DNA from: a virus
Taxonomy: Duplodnaviria; Heunggongvirae; Uroviricota; Caudoviricetes
Direction: 5' to 3' (one strand)
IMG/VR virus record: IMGVR_UViG_2713896791_000021
DNA length: 8,851 bases
Shown: one piece after another, positions 1 to 8,851 of the stretch
Layout: the number at the start of each line of letters is the position of its first letter
Position numbering within the stretch: position 1 is the first letter of the stretch
Notes under the pieces: model-generated
Database searches by the model: none
Told to the model about the DNA's origin: nothing
What the model saw: only the letters and a program-made list of their open reading frames with translations
Made by a program: the position numbers and the translations under genes

Positions 1-19
1 CTAATTGATAAATAAAAAA

Positions 20-1300
20 TTAACTTTTCATCGCTTCGTTATGGGGCATGGTTGGGGCAAACTCGCTTAACTGTGTATTTAACAGCGTTACCTGCGCATT
101 ATTATTTTCTGACATCCATTTCCCGTACACCTGAAACACCATTTGCGCATCTGCATGGCCCATCTGGTTTGCAATGAATGCCGGGTTAGCTCCTGCTGTT
201 AACGACCAGCAGGCATAAGTGTGTCTCGACTGATACGATTTGCGATGGCGGATTCCGGCACGCTTTACCGCTGCGTCCCACATCTGCCTTATTGAGTCAA
301 CGGTAAAATGGTCACCATAATTTTTTACTTTCGCTGACACTTCAGGTTGAAAAACAAAGGTACATTTTTGTTTCTCTGTTCTGCCGAATTCTCTGAGGTG
401 AACATCGATGATATGCTCTTTGCTCAGTCTCGTTAGTGCCATCTGACTCCGGAGAGCGTCGATTGCGGGATTAATAAGGTGAATCACACGATTGGTTCCC
501 GCCTGTGTTTTTGGTACTGTAAAACGGTCTTTTGCCAGATTTCTTCTGATTATCATTGTTCCATTTTTCAGATCTATATCTTCCCATCCAAGCGCACACA
601 GTTCACCAGGGCGAATCCCAGTATAAACGGAAACACACCATAAATTTTTGGCTTGCTGATTTCTGCACGCGTCAATAAGGCGGATAAACTCCTCCCGCGA
701 AAGTGGATCCGGGATGGTTCTCGACTCCTTTAATGGTGAGATCCCCTTAAATGGATTGTTTGCCAGATAACCGTTATCAACACCAAACTGGAACACGGCG
801 TAAAGATTTGTCATGTAATTATTTACGGTAACAGCCGATCTCCCTGGTTGTGTAACAATATAGTTACTTTTGGGGATCTGGTATCCAGTCAGTAACTCTT
901 TACGTACCGCCAGCAATTTTTCTTTATTAATCGATGATGCAAGATTTTTTTCACCGATTATGCTCAGAATATTTTTGATGACGGCACGGTACGTGTTGAG
1001 TGACGTTTTTGCGACTTCAGTTTCTTTCAGTGCCAGAAATTTTTCAGCCAGTTCTTTTATGGTTAAATCTTGTCGGGCCTCACCAAATTTTTCCAGATTG
1101 TGTGAGGCGGGAAACTGTTTTGCATAGTCGAAAGCGCCAGTTTTTATTGCGTAACAAACAGAGGCGCGTAGCTCACCTGCAATGCGCCTGTTTTTTGCTG
1201 TGTCAGGAACCCCAAGATTTTCCCGGACTCTTACACCTTTATAAACAAACCAGATACGTAATTTCCCTCCATGGTTTTCCACGCCTGTCGGATATTTCAT
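20..1300 (-). CDS. int: Phage tyrosine integrase (lambda-family site-specific recombinase)
   Basis: ORF 20..1315 (-), 431 aa. N-terminal arm-binding-like segment (MKYPTGVENHGGKLRIWFVYKGVRVRE); catalytic-domain residues in the expected order (R in VYTGIRPGE, H/R in QSRHTYACW, H in GHAD, nucleophile Y in QVYGKW). Start placed at the second ATG (1298-1300, preceded by GAGAGAAG); the first ATG at 1313-1315 has no SD-like sequence, so the 5' end is uncertain by 15 nt. Confidence 0.9.
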   Translation of the reverse strand: MKYPTGVENHGGKLRIWFVYKGVRVRENLGVPDTAKNRRIAGELRASVCYAIKTGAFDYAKQFPASHNLEKFGEARQDLTIKELAEKFLALKETEVAKTSLNTYRAVIKNILSIIGEKNLASSINKEKLLAVRKELLTGYQIPKSNYIVTQPGRSAVTVNNYMTNLYAVFQFGVDNGYLANNPFKGISPLKESRTIPDPLSREEFIRLIDACRNQQAKNLWCVSVYTGIRPGELCALGWEDIDLKNGTMIIRRNLAKDRFTVPKTQAGTNRVIHLINPAIDALRSQMALTRLSKEHIIDVHLREFGRTEKQKCTFVFQPEVSAKVKNYGDHFTVDSIRQMWDAAVKRAGIRHRKSYQSRHTYACWSLTAGANPAFIANQMGHADAQMVFQVYGKWMSENNNAQVTLLNTQLSEFAPTMPHNEAMKS

Positions 1301-1334
1301 TTCAGCTTCTCTCATTGGTTCGTGTTGCTTTTAG

Positions 1335-1586
1335 TCAAGCAAGATGACGTCTTGGTCTTGCAGATGCCTGGCGCTCAATCCAGCGATCAATTTCTTCCAG
1401 GTTGTAAAAGCATGGACTGTTATCCCATGGCATACCGTCATGAGCGACATGCTTATATTCCCTTCCTTCCATAAACGATTTTTCCCTGGCTTTTTTTAGC
1501 GTTCCCTTTTTGATTCCTTTAAGTGCAATTAACTGCTCTTCGGATACCCATTTGCCAGGAGAGACGATCATGATTACTTCGCTCAT
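1335..1586 (-). CDS. xis: Excisionase (Xis-like, winged-helix DNA-binding protein)
   Basis: ORF 1335..1658 (-). The 83-aa core from ATG 1584-1586 (MSEVIMIVSPGKW...GTLKKAREKSFMEGREYKHV...) has the size and pattern of lambdoid excisionases and sits immediately upstream of int on the same strand. The ORF's first ATG (1656-1658) overlaps the upstream stop as TAATG, so a 107-aa form is also possible. Confidence 0.7.
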   Translation of the reverse strand: MSEVIMIVSPGKWVSEEQLIALKGIKKGTLKKAREKSFMEGREYKHVAHDGMPWDNSPCFYNLEEIDRWIERQASARPRRHLA

Positions 1587-1657
1587 CGATTCTTTATCTC
1601 TTACATCAGATGAACGCCGGTTGCAGAATACCAATTGCAACCGACGACGGTTGAACA

Positions 1658-4075
1658 TTAAAAATCAGCCTGACTCGGGATCAGTTTTTTCCAGATAGCT
1701 GAAACGTATTTTGCCTGATAACGGGCGTCATCAAGTGCATTATGGCGCTCACCTTCGAATGGGATAGCAGTTCTGACATCGAAGTCTATGGCTTTCCCCA
1801 GCTCAACGATTGTGCGTACATCGCGATCGTTGTAGTAACGCCACGGGCAGGGGATCCCCTGCCGTTCGTATGAACGGCGCAAAATCGTGTTGTCGAAGTT
1901 GGCTCCATTTCCCCAGACCTGAACAAAAAATTCACCGGAGTTTTCGTCGATAAATTCCCGCAATTGTAACAGTGCATCATCTAACGGGATTTCATCGGTC
2001 ATAATGGCAGATTGCGCTTCGCGTGATTGCTTAAGCCACCATTTAATGGTGTCCCGATCAATGACTCCGCCAGCAGTTTCCAGATCGATAGTCTTACTAA
2101 ATTCCGGTCCCATATCTCCGGTTTGCGGATCGAAAAATATTGCACCTATTGAGATAATCGGGGCATCAGGATTTTTTCCCATGGTTTTAAGGTCGATCAT
2201 TAGATGGTCACACGTCCTGCTGGTGGATGTGATAACGTGATGACCGTTCACCGTAATTAAGGGATTTGCTGTCTCGCCTGTTTCATTATTGCCATTGGCA
2301 TGTTGATCGCCTTCGGTGCATTGCTTATTCGGGAGCACGGCATTTTCCATTTCCTCCGGATTTTTTTTCCGGGCTTCATCCTGGCTTTCTTCGTTGAATG
2401 TCTCTTGGTAGGTTGCGTCACCCATTACCGCTCCACAATCAGGGCAGTTGCCGCCATCGGTCTGACCACATGTGGTGCAAACTTTTTCTGGTTCTTGTTG
2501 CACTACTGGTTCAGGTTGTTTTGTTTTTGGCTCGTTTTGTAACGCATTTGGGCTGTTTTGTTCCGCTTTATCCTGATTCTGGTCATCATCATCGCGACTC
2601 TGGATCCCCTTCACCCATTTTGGATCATTCGGGTCGCTAATCCCTTCAACAAATTCTCCTCGAGAAGCAGCCAGTAATTTATCTGCATCGACAGGATTTT
2701 TGGGTGGAATGTTTTTCTTGGCTTCATGGAGTTCTGCACGCAGTTTCTGATATTTCGCATCAACAGAATTTATCTGTGGCTGAGCATCCATCGACTGCGT
2801 GTCCTGATTATGTTCAGTTGTATCCGGTTCCACTGCTTCAGTCGTTGCCTGTTCATCTGCCATTGCGCCAGATGGCTGCGGTTTTTCTTCATCATCCTGT
2901 TTTCCTTCTTTTGTTACACGCTGCGGCATCGGGGCAGAGGAGCGACCACAGGCAATATCCACGATTTCCGGATCAGGGGTGGCATGATCGGTTTCAGTCA
3001 GCACCTTATTCAGGTATTCGGTGACACGGTGGGGAGTAGCCTCTATACCAATTGGTGCTTCTTTCACGGACGCAACCACGATGGCGCGGGAGTAATCCTT
3101 GTGGCCCGGCATGGTGATGAATTTGCTGAAAAACACAGAAAATGGCGGTTTATTTTCAGCGATAATTTCCTCAATGCGTTTAGCGTGCGCGGGATGAAGG
3201 TTATAAATATCCACGTCCATTGAACGGGCCAGTACGCCAGTGGCTACGTCACGCGCCACTGACGCATCATCGTGGACAAAACCTTCGCCGCGATCGGTAA
3301 GAATGCCGCCGCCAGCGTTAGCGCCGGATGGCGTGCGGCTGATGCGTGAAACACGATTTCCTTTCATCCACTCTTTTGTAAGCAGACCGCGATCGGTGTA
3401 GTCAGCGCCCAGGTATGCTTCGATAAAAGAGGTCATCAGTCCCAGGTCCGAATTTACGGGGGCGGGGAAAACTTTGTCAGTGTCTCGCACCAGTTTGTAC
3501 AAATCCCGAAGCTCCAGCGGTTCGAGTTGCACTGCTTTATTTGAGATGGCCAGCGCGGTAACGGCGGGAAGTTTTTCATCCTGTGCGTTATGTAATGCGC
3601 GCAGTTTGTCCAGTGAAACGTGCGTGAGCGGTTTTTCGCTGTTGTGTTGCGCCAGCCAGCGAACAGGCAGAATCTGACCTGAAACCGGAAGAAGCATATT
3701 CTCCTCAATCTTAGCCATGTCTTCGCCGTTGACGTTGGTATTGTCAGTACTGGCTGGTTTGTCCGGAACAGAGGGCGCGATAAGTATCATTGTGATACCA
3801 TCTTCTCCGCCTTTTTCGTATCGGTTGCAGAATTCAGTATCAAACACACCTTCCGGTGGAAGGTCATTCACAACGGGTAAATGGACGCGGATGGGTTTTT
3901 TAAAATCCTCTTCGTCAAATCCGGCATCGTCCATTGCAGCAACACCACGTGATATTGCAACCGATAATTTTTTTGCTGTGCGCCAGTAAAAACCACCTTT
4001 AATCCCAAGGCGTTTTCTGACTTTGTCATTTTTGGCTTCGTAATATAGTGCAATTTCTTCTTTATCAGCGTTCAT
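1658..4075 (-). CDS. YdfE/RecE-like large prophage protein with C-terminal DEDDh-type 3'-5' exonuclease domain (Rv2179c-like) and an internal CxxC...CxxC zinc-ribbon motif
   Basis: 805-aa ORF with GAGG 7 nt upstream of ATG 4073-4075. The N-terminal ~400 aa resemble, from memory, the non-catalytic N-terminal part of Rac RecE / Qin YdfE. A central acidic, Q/P-rich low-complexity linker follows. [15 protein letters not shown] is a C-x2-C-x7-C-x2-C knuckle. The C-terminus (...[24 protein letters not shown]...GANFDNTIL...[10 protein letters not shown]) matches the Exo I/II/III layout of DnaQ-like exonucleases. Confidence 0.85.
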
Positions 4076-4167
4076 TGATAAACCTCATAACCATTTTAAG
4101 GATGAACAAATTCCTGCCATTGCTGGCATTTTTAATCCGTTGGTATGGCGTTAATATGGCTGGCGGG

Positions 4168-4356
4168 TTATCCAGCCGGTGTTTCGTTATTCAGGTACAG
4201 CGATACTTTTTTTAACGGGAGGCATTCACCGGGGATTTTTTGTTCGTCCCTTACCTGAATGCAGGATGACTTACTGTAATAAATTCCGGTAATCACATTC
4301 TGCGGCTCACCCGTTATAAGAAAAACGGTCATTATCAGTGCAAACGCTGAAGTCAC
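4168..4356 (-). CDS. ydfD: YdfD-like small prophage protein (Qin ydfD family, reported lysis-related)
   Basis: 62-aa ORF directly downstream of dicB. GTG start (4354-4356) overlaps the dicB stop as GTGA, with GGAG 7 nt upstream; this 4-bp overlap and the gene size match what I recall for K-12 dicB-ydfD. An alternative ATG lies at 4330-4332. Confidence 0.55.
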   Translation of the reverse strand: MTSAFALIMTVFLITGEPQNVITGIYYSKSSCIQVRDEQKIPGECLPLKKVSLYLNNETPAG

Positions 4357-4541
4357 TGCTGTTCTCCGATAATACCAAGTTCAAGAAGGGCAATTCTGGA
4401 AAGTATGGAATTATCATTAAGAAGATAAGGTTCATATTTTCTCATCTTAATGGCATCTTCAGTAAACTCCCGGTTACTGAGCAGAACTCCAATATCAAAA
4501 CAACCTTCAGACGTATTAACGTTTGGTAATAACGTTTCCAT
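4353..4541 (-). CDS. dicB: Cell-division inhibitor DicB (MinC-dependent FtsZ-ring inhibitor)
   Basis: 62-aa product METLLPNVNTSEGCFDIGVLLSNREFTEDAIKMRKYEPYLLNDNSILSRIALLELGIIGEQQ closely resembles K-12 DicB (recalled) and lies downstream of dicF in the expected operon order. The track ORF 4353..4661 extends artificially upstream through the N-run; the true start is ATG 4539-4541. Confidence 0.85.
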   Translation of the reverse strand: METLLPNVNTSEGCFDIGVLLSNREFTEDAIKMRKYEPYLLNDNSILSRIALLELGIIGEQQ

Positions 4542-4550
4542 TATCGCGTC

Positions 4551-4590
4551 NNNNNNNNNNNNNNNNNNNNNNNNNNNNNNNNNNNNNNNN
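4551..4590. other. Assembly gap (run of 40 N)
   Basis: 40 consecutive N characters. The flanks are the 3' side of dicF and the 5' end of dicB, so the true length of the dicF-dicB spacer is unknown. Confidence 0.99.
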
Positions 4591-4607
4591 NNNNNNNNNN
4601 TCACAAA

Positions 4608-4664
4608 ATTCACTTTAAAAAGGGCGGCAGAGCAGTCACGGAGTAAAACTGATACCGCCAAATG
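4608..4664 (-). ncRNA. dicF: DicF small regulatory RNA (Hfq-dependent sRNA targeting ftsZ and other mRNAs)
   Basis: Minus-strand sequence UUUCUGGUGACAUUUGGCGGUAUCAGUUUUACUCCGUGACUGCUCUGCCGCCCUUUUU matches my recollection of DicF at all but about one position. It ends in a GC-rich stem (GGCGG...GCCGCC) plus U-run intrinsic terminator and sits between ydfC and dicB as in Qin. Confidence 0.8.
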
Positions 4665-4926
4665 TCACCAGAAAATTGATAACAGAGGGCGTTGTAGCGG
4701 GGTTGTCACTTAAGTGTATGGTCAACCTGACAACCCGGTGCATTTTCTGGAGCAATGGAGGAAACCCCAGCCATACTTACCGCCGCGCCATTTCGCGGAC
4801 TGCCACAACCGGAAGCGCACGGTCGACGAAAATTTAACGACAGGCTATCTATGAACCAGCTACCTCGCCGTACGCTTTCGCGTTGTGTGCCTGCTTTTAA
4901 CCACGTCAGGCGAGGTGGTTCCTGTT

Positions 4927-4955
4927 ATTCCCCAACAACAAGAAATTTGTATAAT
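4927..4955 (+). promoter_or_regulatory. Candidate sigma70 promoter (perfect -10 TATAAT at 4950-4955, TG immediately upstream, weak -35) pointing toward the 5100..5444 ORF
   Basis: tttgTATAATctgg at 4946-4958, with -35 region tattcc (weak). Flanked by 16-bp direct repeats CCCCAACAAC(A/G)AGAA(A/G) at 4930-4945 and 4964-4979. Confidence 0.3.
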
Positions 4956-5099
4956 CTGGATATCCCCAACAACGAGAAGAGTATGTAACGTGATAGTTGA
5001 GTTCTCAGCAGCAATGTCGGCAATCAAAGAAACTGCGGTAATGGCAAAGGGTATTCTGAATGCAAAACTCAAACTGAGATAAATTCCGCTGTCAGCGAT

Positions 5100-5444
5100 A
5101 TGCTTTCAAAACTTACGTCTGTTCAGTTTGAATGCGTATCGCTCATTGAGATGGTGCGCTCTTATCAGGAAGAAGCCGCATCTCTCAAAGCAAAAATTGC
5201 AGAGATAGAAGACTTTCAGCAACAGGCGGAAGGTTACAAACTTAACAAGCTTGATTCTGGAACTCTTGTGTATTCCAAGAAGCAATTTATAGGCGATACC
5301 GAGATAACAGTGCATCTTTGCCCACAATGTTTTGGAAAAAAGGTAATATCTGTACTGCAACCAATGGAAATAATGCGCTTTGATGCTCATTTTCGTACTT
5401 TTTGCCCCGCTTGCAATAATAAGTTCTGGATGAACTCAAGATAA
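5100..5444 (+). CDS. Hypothetical 114-aa protein, N-terminal coiled-coil plus C-terminal C4 zinc ribbon (CPQC...x17...CPAC); no recognised family
   Basis: ORF on the strand opposite to the dicB operon. Visibly AT-rich with many ATA/CTT/AAA codons compared with its neighbours. The antisense frames are aromatic/hydrophobic junk, while this frame is protein-like (EEAASLKAKIAEIEDFQQQAEG; HLCPQCFGKK...FCPACNNKFW). No convincing SD before ATG 5100. Confidence 0.35.
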   Translation: MLSKLTSVQFECVSLIEMVRSYQEEAASLKAKIAEIEDFQQQAEGYKLNKLDSGTLVYSKKQFIGDTEITVHLCPQCFGKKVISVLQPMEIMRFDAHFRTFCPACNNKFWMNSR

Positions 5445-5559
5445 TTAACCGTTTAAATAAGTTGGGACTATCCAGATTTTTAAAGAACGTGCCGGATGCT
5501 CACCCGTGTCCGGCGCACGCACTCCACCTGACCCGTAGAGAACTCCTTAATTACCAACC

Positions 5560-5799
5560 TTATCCTCGTTGGTTAGCTATTAACGCGGGTATGTAATCAT
5601 TCTGGCAATGCTTAATGCCGCTGCTTTTTCCAAATTGGTGATATCCTGCTCCAGAGCGGACAGATTTTTCAGCCTGCTTAGCCCTGGCTTCATTGGCCCA
5701 TTTCAGATCCTGCGCTGCATTAATTTTCTGGCGCATCCACTCATAAAGTTCATCATCGGTATAGTCTGGCGCGATGATGACGGGTTCTCGTTTATGCAT
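5560..5799 (-). CDS. ydfC: YdfC-like small prophage protein (dicB operon)
   Basis: 79-aa ORF with GAGGAA 5 nt upstream of ATG 5797-5799, in the position of ydfC between ydfB and dicF. Family assignment is by operon position plus vague sequence recollection. Confidence 0.65.
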   Translation of the reverse strand: MHKREPVIIAPDYTDDELYEWMRQKINAAQDLKWANEARAKQAEKSVRSGAGYHQFGKSSGIKHCQNDYIPALIANQRG

Positions 5800-5846
5800 A
5801 CTGATTCCTCGCGGTGCTGTTTCGCTTATCAGCCGTTAGATTTTGC

Positions 5847-5957
5847 CTAACTGGAAAGCGCCTGTTTAAACTCACTGAAGCTGAGAGCCTCTTCGCCTTC
5901 GGCAAGGTCTTCGAAGTATTCTTCGTAAGCCTTTTCCATGATTGTGTCGAAATCCAT
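5847..5957 (-). CDS. ydfB: YdfB-like small acidic protein (dicB operon)
   Basis: Not in the supplied track (too short). Manual translation from ATG 5955-5957 gives MDFDTIMEKAYEEYFEDLAEGEEALSFSEFKQALSS, then TAG (5847-5849). AGGTGA SD sits inside the ydfA 3' end, and ydfA stop and ydfB start are arranged as TGATATG. In-frame upstream GTG (5964-5966) or ATG (5997-5999) could extend it. Confidence 0.65.
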   Translation of the reverse strand: MDFDTIMEKAYEEYFEDLAEGEEALSFSEFKQALSS

Positions 5958-5958
5958 A

Positions 5959-6114
5959 TCACTCACCTGAGTTTCTTTCCAGCCAGCGACGGGCACCATT
6001 TTCGGTTTTAAACGTTTTGCTTTTGGTATACGTCATCGCGGTGAACGTGCCGTCCTGGTTTGGGAACACGCCGTACACCAGAGATTCGTTGCTGCCAAGA
6101 TCGATAGTATCCAT
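5959..6114 (-). CDS. ydfA: YdfA-like protein (DUF1391 family, first gene of dicB operon)
   Basis: 51-aa product MDTIDLGSNESLVYGVFPNQDGTFTAMTYTKSKTFKTENGARRWLERNSGE from ATG 6112-6114, with GAGG 5 nt upstream; near-identical to recalled K-12 YdfA. The upstream ATG of track ORF 5959..6168 has no SD. Confidence 0.75.
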   Translation of the reverse strand: MDTIDLGSNESLVYGVFPNQDGTFTAMTYTKSKTFKTENGARRWLERNSGE

Positions 6115-6195
6115 GCTGACCTCATTTCCCCTTAACGCCGGAGTAGCGGAACTGTTTGCTGAGAACACCGTGCGGTGTCTTGATGAGTGAAATTT

Positions 6196-6231
6196 AGAAT
6201 AACCTAAGGCATATGGTCAAGATTTTTATGT
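6196..6231 (-). promoter_or_regulatory. Candidate dicB-operon promoter (PL analogue): -35 TTGACC, 18-bp spacer, -10 TAAATT, read on the minus strand
   Basis: Minus-strand TTGACC (plus 6226-6231) and TAAATT (plus 6202-6207) lie ~80 nt upstream of the ydfA start. The spacer contains CCTTAGG, the same motif that recurs in the dicA/dicC intergenic region. Confidence 0.35.
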
Positions 6232-6315
6232 AGAAAAACCTAAGTTTTTTGGTGTAAAAAACACAAGTGTTTGAAAGTTTGTGCTTTTTATTACAGGGTG
6301 TGGAGAAAAAAGGGG

Positions 6316-6723
6316 TTATTTGTTTGCGCTTCTTTTGCGAGCTTTAAGTAGTTCTTCAAAAAGTTTGTTGAAATTTTCAACTCGAGCACGCATCTCTGAC
6401 AACAGGGCCTTTTGCTCTGAGTCAGGCAGTGCGTCGAACAGTTGAAGTAACTCTTTTTGATCTTCTGTCAGAATGGCTGGCTGATTATTCGGGATCGGTT
6501 CGCCTGGTTGTTTATCTTCATCCCCAAAAAGAAGCCAAGTCGGTGAGCACTGAAGCGCTTGGCTCAGTGCGAATAATCTTTTCCCCGCCGGCTGTGTTTC
6601 ATCTCTTTCCCATTGAGAAATTGTTACGTGAGCCACTTTGACCAGCTTACCTAATGCGGCCTGAGACAGTTTTAATTTTTTACGCCTATGTAAGAGGCGA
6701 GCACCGAAGGTTTCGTTTTTCAT
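6316..6723 (-). CDS. dicA: Prophage repressor DicA (XRE-family HTH, cI/C2 functional analogue)
   Basis: 135-aa product with HTH (LKLSQAALGKLVKVAHVTISQWERDETQP) and CSPTWLLFGDEDKQP resembling K-12 DicA; divergent from the cro-like gene. There is no SD, and a TAGAAT box ends 8 nt before the ATG, consistent with a leaderless, PRM-like transcript. Confidence 0.9.
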   Translation of the reverse strand: MKNETFGARLLHRRKKLKLSQAALGKLVKVAHVTISQWERDETQPAGKRLFALSQALQCSPTWLLFGDEDKQPGEPIPNNQPAILTEDQKELLQLFDALPDSEQKALLSEMRARVENFNKLFEELLKARKRSANK

Positions 6724-6799
6724 ATTAGGGAATTCTAATTTTTCTTGACTTAGGTTTCTCTACGATCTAGTTTCCTTAGGAAAATCTAAGGAGCTCGAT
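6724..6799. promoter_or_regulatory. Divergent immunity-switch region (OR-like): dicC promoter, dicA promoter and operator-like inverted repeats
   Basis: Plus strand: -35 TTGACT (6745-6750), 17-bp spacer, -10 TAGTTT (6768-6773), then AAGGAG SD (6788-6793) for dicC. Inverted repeat TCCTTAG-N5-CTAAGGA (6773-6791); ATTAG-N6-CTAAT (6724-6739); TTAGG/CCTAA half-sites repeated. Confidence 0.55.
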
Positions 6800-7027
6800 A
6801 TGTTGAAAATTGATGCTATAGCGTTTTTTGGCAGCAAAACAAAGCTTGCCAATGCCGCAGGAGTTAGGTTGGCAAGCATTGCTGCATGGGGGGAACTGGT
6901 TCCTGAAGGTCGCGCGATGCGCCTGCAAGAGGCATCCGGCGGGGAACTTCAGTACGACCCCAAAGTTTATGACGAATATCGTAAGGCAAAGCGGGCGGGG
7001 CGGTTGAACAATGAAAATCACCCCTGA
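6800..7027 (+). CDS. dicC: Cro-like regulator DicC
   Basis: 75-aa product MLKIDAIAFFGSKTKLANAAGVRLASIAAWGELVPEGRAMRLQEASGGELQYDPKVYDEYRKAKRAGRLNNENHP resembles K-12 DicC (recalled). Strong SD AAGGAG 6 nt upstream; divergent from dicA. Confidence 0.85.
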   Translation: MLKIDAIAFFGSKTKLANAAGVRLASIAAWGELVPEGRAMRLQEASGGELQYDPKVYDEYRKAKRAGRLNNENHP

Positions 7028-7562
7028 ACAGGTTTGTGAGGCTCTGGATGCCTGGGTATGTCGACCAGGAATGACACAGGAGCAGGCGACGATATTAATC
7101 ACGGAAGCATTCTGGGCTCTGAAAGAACGCCCGAACATCGATGTTCAACGCGTCACGTTTAATGATGGCGAGGTTGATCAACGGGCGCTGGGCGTTAACC
7201 GGGTGAAGATATTCGAACGCTGGAAAGCTATCGACACCAGGGATAAGCGGGAAAAATTCACGGCGCTGATTCCGGCAATTATGGAGGCTATCCGAATTAG
7301 TGATTTCAGGTTGTATCGTGAGATCAGTGATGGAAAAAGCATTACGTACATGATCGCCGGATTAAACAAAGAATATGGCGATGTGGTGGAGTCCGGGCTG
7401 CTTTTTGCGGATCCAGCTGTTGTGGAACGTGAGACTGACGAGCTTATAGAAAAAGCTATTGCTTTCAAGCATGCGTATCGTCAGCAATATCAATATTACT
7501 TTGCAGATAAACAAATATCTGCCAGGGGTTCGTATGAGTATCGATGCACTACGATGGGCTAA
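7011..7562 (+). CDS. YdaT-like protein (Rac YdaT family; proposed CII-like regulator, also reported as toxic on overexpression)
   Basis: 183-aa ORF directly after the cro-like gene. The motif RWKAIDTRDKREKFTALIPAIMEAIRISDFRL parallels recalled Rac YdaT (RWLKGETKTQREKIQKLIPAILAILPRELRHRL). Overlaps dicC by 17 nt and the next gene by 29 nt. Confidence 0.7.
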   Translation: MKITPEQVCEALDAWVCRPGMTQEQATILITEAFWALKERPNIDVQRVTFNDGEVDQRALGVNRVKIFERWKAIDTRDKREKFTALIPAIMEAIRISDFRLYREISDGKSITYMIAGLNKEYGDVVESGLLFADPAVVERETDELIEKAIAFKHAYRQQYQYYFADKQISARGSYEYRCTTMG

Positions 7563-8574
7563 AAAGGTGAAAACCGGCAGTTCATCCAGTAAGTCTGTAT
7601 TGACCTGGCTTGCTGATATGTGCGGTGCCGATTTGTGTGCATACCCGTCTGTATCTGCACTGGCAGAAGTAACGGAACTGAACAAAAAGACTGTGCAGGA
7701 CAGCTTACGACACCTGATGGAGATTGGGTTAATTGTTGATACCGGTGAGAGAAAAGGCAGAACAAAGCAAATTGTGGTGTACCGACTTATCGGTGTAGAA
7801 GAAAGTGTTGCCGAGCCTGAATACACCCAAAAACGGGTGTCTTTAAAGGTGGGTAAAATTGGTGCTGTTAATAAAAACAGTACCGAAAACGGTTATGTTT
7901 CAGCACAAAAGAGCCCCAAAAACGGAACTCTTTGTTGCATGGAAAATAACCAAAGACACCCAAATTTTCCATCAAAGACACCCAAAAACGGATCACGGAA
8001 CCCAAAGGAACCCAAAGATCTAAACCCCACACATAACGCACGCGAGAGTGCTCCGACCAGTGAGCAGGAAGTTTTGTCGTTACAGGCAGTCCCCCCTGTA
8101 TTCCTGGATGGCCTGAGCGAACCCATCGGAAAATTTCCGATGACCGATAACTGGTATCCGTCACGGGATTTTCGACGACGGGCTGCGTTGTGGGGGATGG
8201 CTTTGCCGGAGACAGAATTCACACCTGCTGAACTTGCCGCATTCCGGGACTACTGGGCAGCGGAGGGGAAAGTGTTTACGCAGGTTCAGTGGGAGCAGAA
8301 ATTCGCCCGTCACGTAAATCACGTCAGGGCGCAGGTTAAACCAGTCAGCAAGGGGGTAAACCATGCAGCAGCACCAGGTGGAACCGCATCACGGGCAGTT
8401 CAGGAAATTCGGGCAGCACGTGAGCAATGGGAACGTGAAAACGGATTTATCAGCGACGGAAACGGCCTGGAAGCTGTGGGAGCTCATGGGGGAGGTTTAT
8501 TCGAACCGCTGGACCCAGAAGAACGGGGCCGCACCTTCGAAGCTCTGGATTGCACAGATTGGCGCGATGACTGA
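7534..8574 (+). CDS. Replication initiator, O-like (N-terminal HTH DNA-binding domain, iteron-encoding linker, C-terminal DnaT-like domain); 3' end as sequenced is probably extended by a frameshift
   Basis: Track ORF 7459..8574; start set at ATG 7534-7536 (MSIDALRWAKK...) with AGGGG 5 nt upstream. N-terminal HTH (SVSALAEVTELNKKTVQDSLRHLMEIGLI); low-complexity K/N/P linker encoded by iteron-like repeats; C-terminal segment FPMTDNWYPSRDFRRRAALWG...FTQVQWEQKFARHV. See the finding on the G5 run at 8352-8356 for the likely true end near 8359. Confidence 0.7.
   Translation: MSIDALRWAKKVKTGSSSSKSVLTWLADMCGADLCAYPSVSALAEVTELNKKTVQDSLRHLMEIGLIVDTGERKGRTKQIVVYRLIGVEESVAEPEYTQKRVSLKVGKIGAVNKNSTENGYVSAQKSPKNGTLCCMENNQRHPNFPSKTPKNGSRNPKEPKDLNPTHNARESAPTSEQEVLSLQAVPPVFLDGLSEPIGKFPMTDNWYPSRDFRRRAALWGMALPETEFTPAELAAFRDYWAAEGKVFTQVQWEQKFARHVNHVRAQVKPVSKGVNHAAAPGGTASRAVQEIRAAREQWERENGFISDGNGLEAVGAHGGGLFEPLDPEERGRTFEALDCTDWRDD
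7914..8017 (+). repeat. Iteron-like direct repeats inside the O-like gene (putative phage replication origin)
   Basis: CCCAAA core at 7915, 7958, 7981, 8001 and 8011. CCCAAAAACGGA occurs twice (7915-7926, 7981-7992), CAAAGACACCCAAA twice (7951-7964, 7973-7986), and GAACCCAAAG is tandem (7998-8007, 8008-8017). Related CCGAAAACGG at 7883-7892. Position inside the initiator gene mirrors lambda ori within O. Confidence 0.5.
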
Positions 8575-8851
8575 GCAGCAAATCCGGCAGGTCTGCCGCC
8601 AGTGCATGGACTGCTGCCGGGCGGGTGAAACATGGCCTCCGGACCTGGCTGAGTTTGTGGCGCTGATTTCGGAAAGCGGGGCCAATCCATTTGGTCTGAC
8701 GGTGGATGCTGTGATGGAGGAGTACCGCCGCTGGCGCAATGAGTCCTGGCGATACGACGGAAGTGATAAGTACCCGTGGTCTCAGCCTGTGCTGTATCAC
8801 ATTTGCCTCGAGATGCGTTCAAAGGGGATTGAACGCCAGATGACCGAAGGG
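8363..8851 (+). CDS. Replication protein P-like helicase loader (5' part; continues beyond window end)
   Basis: Frame open from 8318 to the window end. ATG 8363-8365 is preceded by AGGGGG and a 6-nt spacer. The translation ...AWKLWELMGEVYSNRW...SKLWIAQIGAMTEQQIRQVCRQCMDCCRAGETWPPDLAEFVAL...YPWSQPVLYHICLEMR parallels lambda P (recalled: ...RRQWVLAFRENGITTMEQV...PSPGQFVAWCRE...YPWKSNAHYWLVTNLYQNMR). Alternative starts are ATG 8486 and ATG 8567, the latter overlapping the O-frame stop as ATGACTGA. Confidence 0.55.
   Translation, partial: MQQHQVEPHHGQFRKFGQHVSNGNVKTDLSATETAWKLWELMGEVYSNRWTQKNGAAPSKLWIAQIGAMTEQQIRQVCRQCMDCCRAGETWPPDLAEFVALISESGANPFGLTVDAVMEEYRRWRNESWRYDGSDKYPWSQPVLYHICLEMRSKGIERQMTEG

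Follow-up and report, generated by a model that had tools for sequence, protein, structure and literature searches.

The window, an 8,851-nt stretch of DNA derived from an E. coli lambdoid prophage, carries on its minus strand (4674..4622) an intact copy of dicF, which encodes the Hfq-dependent small RNA (53 nt) of the dicBF operon found in Qin-type/CP-933-type lambdoid prophages of E. coli. The probability of this reading, with the function carried over from K-12, is estimated at about 0.93. DicF was among the first bacterial small RNAs to become known, and its distribution over E. coli prophages is documented; the feature described here is this already known small RNA gene, an ordinary copy with one genuine single-base variant. 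The gene and its structural parts are as follows:

4622..4674, minus strand: dicF, 53-nt small RNA (G12A allele), identified by the RF00039 match and 52/53 identity to K-12 dicF
4623..4659, minus strand: DicF terminator-type hairpin with a GC-rich stem of 7 bp and an inner stem of 5 bp; minimum-free-energy and centroid structure, -15.9 kcal/mol, in agreement with the Rfam consensus structure
4617..4621, minus strand: five-U run 3' of the hairpin, read from the sequence; in K-12, Rho-independent termination yields the 53-nt form (PMC5069750)

When the entire window was compared with all 4227 Rfam families (cmscan, Rfam 15), the DicF family RF00039 matched the minus strand at 4673..4622 with a score of 77.0 bits (gathering threshold, 48) and E = 4e-16. 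The match is full length (model positions 1-52 of 52), its posterior probability is maximal throughout, and it contains zero non-canonical pairs. No other Rfam family was found in the window, including in a permissive scan at E <= 1, and a search for tRNA and tmRNA genes across the window found none. Since DicF is the sole Rfam match even at E <= 1, the match is far beyond chance, and both a chance match and another RNA family are ruled out. The first-pass annotation of this DNA had read the minus-strand sequence as DicF and had set the covariance-model comparison beforehand as its refuting test, and the outcome was a significant full-length match by a wide margin. Alignment of the window with the K-12 reference (NC_000913.3 1649382..1649434, Qin region) bore out the same assignment, with 52 of 53 nt identical, including all of DicF positions 13-53. 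Within the hairpin stem, three of the four substitutions seen among 124 sampled DicF copies preserve pairing (U-A to U-G, U-G to U-A, and G-C to G-U; the sequences were compared by reading). The sequence of the minus strand around dicF reads UUUUCUGGUGACAUUUGGCGGUAUCAGUUUUACUCCGUGACUGCUCUGCCGCCCUUUUUAAAGUG. The span originally assigned to the gene, 4608-4664, does overlap dicF but is shifted by ~10 nt from the true 53-nt RNA: it leaves out the first 10 nt of DicF (UUUCUGGUGA), including part of the motif quoted in that annotation, and extends 9 nt past the U-run. In RefSeq, there is no feature on dicF ("none" for all 40 matches listed, and the locus annotation lacks an ncRNA), so a covariance-model scan is needed to detect it.

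The neighboring genes on the same strand are those of a dicBF operon:

5959..6114, minus strand: ydfA (DUF1391), first gene of the operon (Pfam PF07151, E 5.3e-27; near-identical to K-12)
5847..5957, minus strand: ydfB homologue, cut by a TCG->TAG stop and ending six codons early (alignment to K-12 ydfB)
5560..5799, minus strand: ydfC homologue, frameshifted by one extra A in an A-run (alignment; RefSeq "ydfC, frameshifted"; phrog_1744 on residues 1-44 only)
4353..4541, minus strand: dicB, encoding a 62-aa division inhibitor (Pfam PF05358 over its full length, E 3.7e-38; RefSeq dicB; 61% identical to K-12 DicB)
4168..4356, minus strand: DUF1482 gene in the position of K-12 ydfD (Pfam PF07358, phrog_1092, and the RefSeq annotation)
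1658-4075, minus strand: 805-aa exonuclease with an N-terminal Exonuc_VIII domain (PF06630) and a C-terminal Rv2179c-like 3'-5' exoribonuclease domain (PF16473, E 1.2e-65)

The gene order on this strand, ydfA-ydfB-ydfC-dicF-dicB followed by a gene in the ydfD position, is that of K-12 Qin, in line with the earlier placement of dicF within a minus-strand operon; the equivalence of the DUF1482 gene to ydfD is by position and phage-record names only. The ydfB and ydfC homologues are damaged, while ydfA, dicF, dicB, and the DUF1482 gene remain intact. The stop codon of dicB overlaps the GTG start codon of the DUF1482 gene (GTGA, 4353-4356), the same as in K-12, an arrangement that suggests translational coupling of these two genes. 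Beyond the exonuclease gene, the minus-strand series continues with excisionase and integrase genes. In the exonuclease itself, ~430 residues between the two domains, many of them acidic or glutamine-/proline-rich, have no Pfam match.

Upstream of the operon lies a control region with the following elements:

6316..6723, minus strand: DicA-like HTH repressor, 135 aa (Pfam HTH_3 and Phage_CI_repr; 61% identical to K-12 DicA over 131 aa)
6800..7027, plus strand: DicC/Cro-like gene, divergent from the repressor gene (Pfam PF14549 P22_Cro, E 3.1e-13)
6191..6220, minus strand: dicBF promoter-like site TTGACC-18-TAAATT with an operator-like site in its spacer (consensus scan; aligns with the TTGACC upstream of K-12 ydfA; function inferred)
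6725..6789, no strand assigned: three TTAG-N6-CTAA operator-like sites between the repressor gene and the cro-like gene (pattern search)

With one mismatch allowed, the TTAG-N6-CTAA pattern occurs six times in the window, and five of the six sites cluster in the two control regions, three in the interval listed above and two near the operon promoter, at 6194-6207 (within the promoter spacer) and 6230-6243. The K-12 operators have the same TTAG-N6-CTAA frame but other central bases. By its sequence, this is a dicBF-type operon presumably controlled by a DicA-type repressor, with a divergent DicC/Cro-type gene and with putative operators at the promoter. Its earlier description as an immunity-region-controlled division-inhibition cassette fits the DicA-like repressor, the P22_Cro gene, the five operator-like sites, and the full-length DicB domain.

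The best matches to the window are in E. coli strains of serotypes O45:H2, O103:H2, and O121, with 5-7 matching places per genome. In comparison to the O45:H2 strain FWSEC0003, there is one mismatch over positions 1-4550 (at 2041) and there are 36 mismatches over positions 4601-8851. All 36 fall within 7061-8020 (the YdaT-like gene and the first part of the replication gene), so the dicF operon is identical to that of FWSEC0003 (4601-7060); this distribution suggests that 7061-8020 is a recombination patch. Parts of the window are shared at 90-95% identity with related prophages and phages (PPompW type, PhiR42_1, and mEp460). A scan of genome contigs with a 52-nt near-exact pattern matched two E. 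coli representatives only and is uninformative on DicF beyond E. coli.

The dicF gene of the Qin cryptic prophage of K-12 (b1574, MG1655) is like the window copy in its hairpin, U-run, 5' flank, 3' spacer, place between ydfC and dicB, and association with a DicA-type repressor. On the other hand, A12, a ~607-nt insertion, and the damaged ydfB and ydfC belong to the window, and Qin has pseudogenes at the positions where the window prophage keeps an integrase, an excisionase, and a full-length exonuclease. The neighboring proteins are far more diverged from K-12 than the RNA is, DicB and the DicA-like repressor each being 61% identical. The stretch 4353-4884 is a mosaic of conservation: dicF, ~65 nt upstream of it, and the spacer (in the FWSEC0003 copy) differ from K-12 by a handful of bases, whereas the protein identity of dicB to K-12 falls to 61% just past the dicB start. 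With ~99% DNA identity for the RNA and its flanks versus 61% identity for the DicB protein, the comparison agrees with selection having acted on the RNA and on the signals for its processing.

Multiple dicBF loci occur across the prophages of pathogenic E. coli (PMC5069750; PMC7873438). The dicF/dicBF copies in EHEC/STEC prophages (CP-933M/O/P of O157:H7, with four copies reported in Sakai and 86-24) represent the same kind of locus, in a large lambdoid prophage of a Shiga-toxin-type lineage. The prophage-encoded, Hfq-dependent small RNAs IpeX (from DLP12) and InvR (from Salmonella SPI-1), similarly to DicF, are horizontally acquired and use the host Hfq and RNase E to act on chromosomal genes (PMC5069750), but their sequences and targets are unrelated to those of DicF.

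The 5' end of K-12 DicF results from an RNase E cut of the polycistronic transcript, whereas Rho-independent termination produces the 3' end of its 53-nt form and RNase III, acting on the full-length transcript, produces that of its 72-nt form (PMC5069750). Sequences corresponding to these signals flank dicF in the window:

4675..4884, minus strand: conserved untranslated 5' flank of dicF, a precursor with an RNase E processing site by K-12 analogy (homology to the K-12 upstream region)
4601..4612, minus strand: visible beginning of a long-range stem (5' arm) immediately downstream of DicF, the likely RNase III site for the 72-nt form (FWSEC0003 sequence)
4551..4600, no strand assigned: run of 50 N replacing 144 nt of the dicF-dicB spacer (FWSEC0003 has 144 nt here, L001 4801-4944)

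The ~65 nt of the 5' flank that adjoin dicF are near-identical to K-12, and the sequence farther upstream is more diverged. Opposite this conserved flank, RefSeq annotates a 77-aa hypothetical protein (WP_071529670.1; 4755-4988, plus strand), an open reading frame that is probably spurious. On the other side of dicF, the FWSEC0003 copy contains a 19-nt inverted repeat (L001 4789-4807/4918-4936) that begins just past the DicF U-run and forms a stem closing the spacer, which is strongly structured (-95.2 kcal/mol, z = -5.4). With the lengths reported for K-12 (PMC5069750), the 3' end of the 72-nt form, 19 nt past nt 53, would fall within the 5' arm of this stem. Both stem arms, along with a dicF-dicB spacing of 174-187 nt, recur in ~100 independent loci. 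The distance from DicF nt 53 to the dicB start is 174 nt in most of the sampled loci but 80 nt in the window (match lengths, 595 versus 501). In FWSEC0003, the 144 nt in place of the N-run make up most of the structured spacer and contain the 3' stem arm, so the putative RNase III stem is mostly hidden in the window. The N-run itself is either a gap in the assembly or masked sequence whose length does not match.

The functional steps of DicF in this prophage (expression, processing, and repression) are inferred by carrying them over from K-12. With the repressor bound, the operon would be silent. On derepression, transcription would begin near 6190 and proceed through ydfA, ydfB, and ydfC and about 1.5 kb to dicF, and RNase E would then make the DicF 5' end. 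The 3' end would be generated either by termination at the hairpin, giving the 53-nt form, or by an RNase III cut in the long downstream stem, giving the 72-nt form. The 3' part of DicF would pair with the ftsZ ribosome-binding site and block FtsZ synthesis, its single-stranded 5' part would pair with xylR and pykA, and the co-transcribed DicB protein would inhibit division independently. That DicF is processed from the ydfABC-dicF-dicB transcript and represses ftsZ as well as further targets, both stated in the first-pass annotation, is established in K-12 (PMC5069750); the ftsZ-pairing part and both flanks are conserved in the window. The hairpin and the U-run, which are typical Hfq-binding parts, are the same as in K-12, where the Hfq dependence of DicF is known (PMC5069750).

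Among the alternative explanations, the one that survives best accepts the window copy as a true dicF but takes it for a silent or decaying relic, which transcription no longer reaches past an insertion and the pseudogenized genes. The insertion and its gene are as follows:

4885..5491, approximate boundaries, no strand assigned: ~607-nt insertion in comparison to K-12 Qin, replacing 46 nt between ydfC and dicF (alignment)
5100-5444, plus strand: 114-aa open reading frame in the insertion (phrog_1244, unknown function)

An insertion with an opposite-strand open reading frame, combined with the damaged ydfB (premature stop) and ydfC (frameshift), means that the transcription reaching dicF could differ from that in K-12. 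This arrangement upstream of dicF is present in only 3 of 110 sampled loci, and a consensus scan of the minus strand between 5100 and 4675 found no separate promoter-like site from which dicF could be transcribed. Because only 3 of the 110 loci carry it upstream of dicF, the 114-aa open reading frame is regarded as a moron-like gene within the early-left operon. Its product, which contains two CxxC motifs, had no match in Pfam or PADLOC when tested as a possible defense or known-function gene. Nevertheless, dicF, its ~210-nt 5' flank, dicB, and the DUF1482 gene are all intact, as are the promoter-like site and the operators. The insertion contains no convincing minus-strand terminator, the sole candidate, at 5098-5086, being a weak hairpin of 5 bp that lacks a proper T-run. 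In addition, the stretch 4601-7060 is identical in another genome, and near-identical copies are present in many O103/O45/O121 strains. A silent relic is considered unlikely, and the preferred reading remains that of an intact dicF with a function carried over from K-12.

Far less probable still is that the element is a mere Rho-independent terminator closing the ydfABC transcript, with no trans-acting role. The GC-rich terminator stem and U-run noticed in the initial reading are real: the hairpin (arms 4659-4653/4629-4623 and 4651-4647/4637-4633) is both the minimum-free-energy and the centroid fold, it is followed by UUUUU at 4621-4617, and together they make up the 3' two-thirds of DicF. 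The folding energy of the hairpin is also unremarkable (z = -1.67; 12 of 200 shuffles fold equally well). However, the 15-nt single-stranded 5' part and the loop, which would be needless for a terminator alone, are kept nearly base for base in comparison to K-12 and over 124 copies, and the same sequence in K-12 represses ftsZ, xylR, and pykA directly through base pairing (PMC5069750).

The only difference from K-12 in the 53 nt of DicF is a G-to-A substitution:

4663, minus strand: variant position, DicF nt 12, A in the window and G in K-12 (alignment); A12 in 17/124 sampled copies; at the center of the predicted 13-bp xylR duplex

The A at this position had been flagged in the first-pass annotation as a difference from K-12; K-12 does carry a G there, and the variant is genuine. 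Among the 124 sampled copies (120 viral-contig loci and three genome loci), position 12 is G in 107 and A in 17 (~14%), and the Rfam consensus has "a" in the corresponding column. A DicF-like 69-mer is present in 4011 of 5426 complete E. coli genomes, in up to 7 places per genome; the 69-mer of the window is an exact best-place match in 121 E. coli records (the >=99% identity band), with one mismatch in most others. A12 is thus a genuine, recurrent minority allele. The N-run close by (4551-4600) might hint at imperfect sequence, but a sequencing or assembly error or a mistaken K-12 base at this position has a practically negligible chance of being the explanation and is refuted by the K-12 alignment, the identical 69-mers in complete genomes, the recurrence of A in 17 of 124 independent copies, and the Rfam consensus.

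K-12 DicF is an Hfq-binding RNA that base-pairs with the ribosome-binding site of ftsZ through its 3' region and with xylR through its 5' end; the 5'-end mutant DicF3 represses neither xylR nor pykA (PMC5069750). Position 12 belongs to the unpaired 5' part, and the ftsZ-pairing 3' part of the window copy is identical to K-12. With G12, DicF nt 5-17 and xylR codons 3-7 (CUAAACGUCACCG) are predicted to form 13 uninterrupted pairs; A12 places an A-C mismatch at the center of this duplex, changing its predicted energy from -20.3 to -14.5 kcal/mol (RNAduplex with the 5' segment). Binding energies were obtained from co-folding partition functions and 5'-segment duplexes, with predicted pairing registers; RNAduplex with full-length DicF was set aside, as it gave unrealistically long duplexes and ignored intramolecular structure. 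With intramolecular structure included, the predicted binding energies are as follows:

xylR: -14.8 kcal/mol with G12, -9.9 kcal/mol with A12
pykA: -12.2 kcal/mol with G12, -9.8 kcal/mol with A12
ftsZ: -7.2 kcal/mol with G12, -6.3 kcal/mol with A12
manX: -4.7 kcal/mol with G12, -4.2 kcal/mol with A12

The predicted loss caused by G12A thus amounts to 5-6 kcal/mol for xylR and about 2.4 kcal/mol for pykA. Of 5408 E. coli genomes, 5386 have an identical xylR site, and this near-invariance means that the target offers no change that would compensate for A12. According to these predictions, G12A would weaken the pairing with xylR and leave the ftsZ-pairing 3' part unaltered. A more far-reaching interpretation, put forward tentatively and on balance doubtful, is that G12A is a target-specificity variant, not a neutral polymorphism, and could uncouple the repression of xylose/pyruvate-kinase metabolism from that of ftsZ.

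As an additional copy of a known gene, this dicF matters little beyond correct annotation. The location of A12 in the predicted seed for the metabolic targets raises a testable question of isoform specificity in multi-copy pathogens. If the interpretation of G12A as a target-specificity variant is true, STEC genomes with several dicF copies would carry functionally different DicF isoforms.
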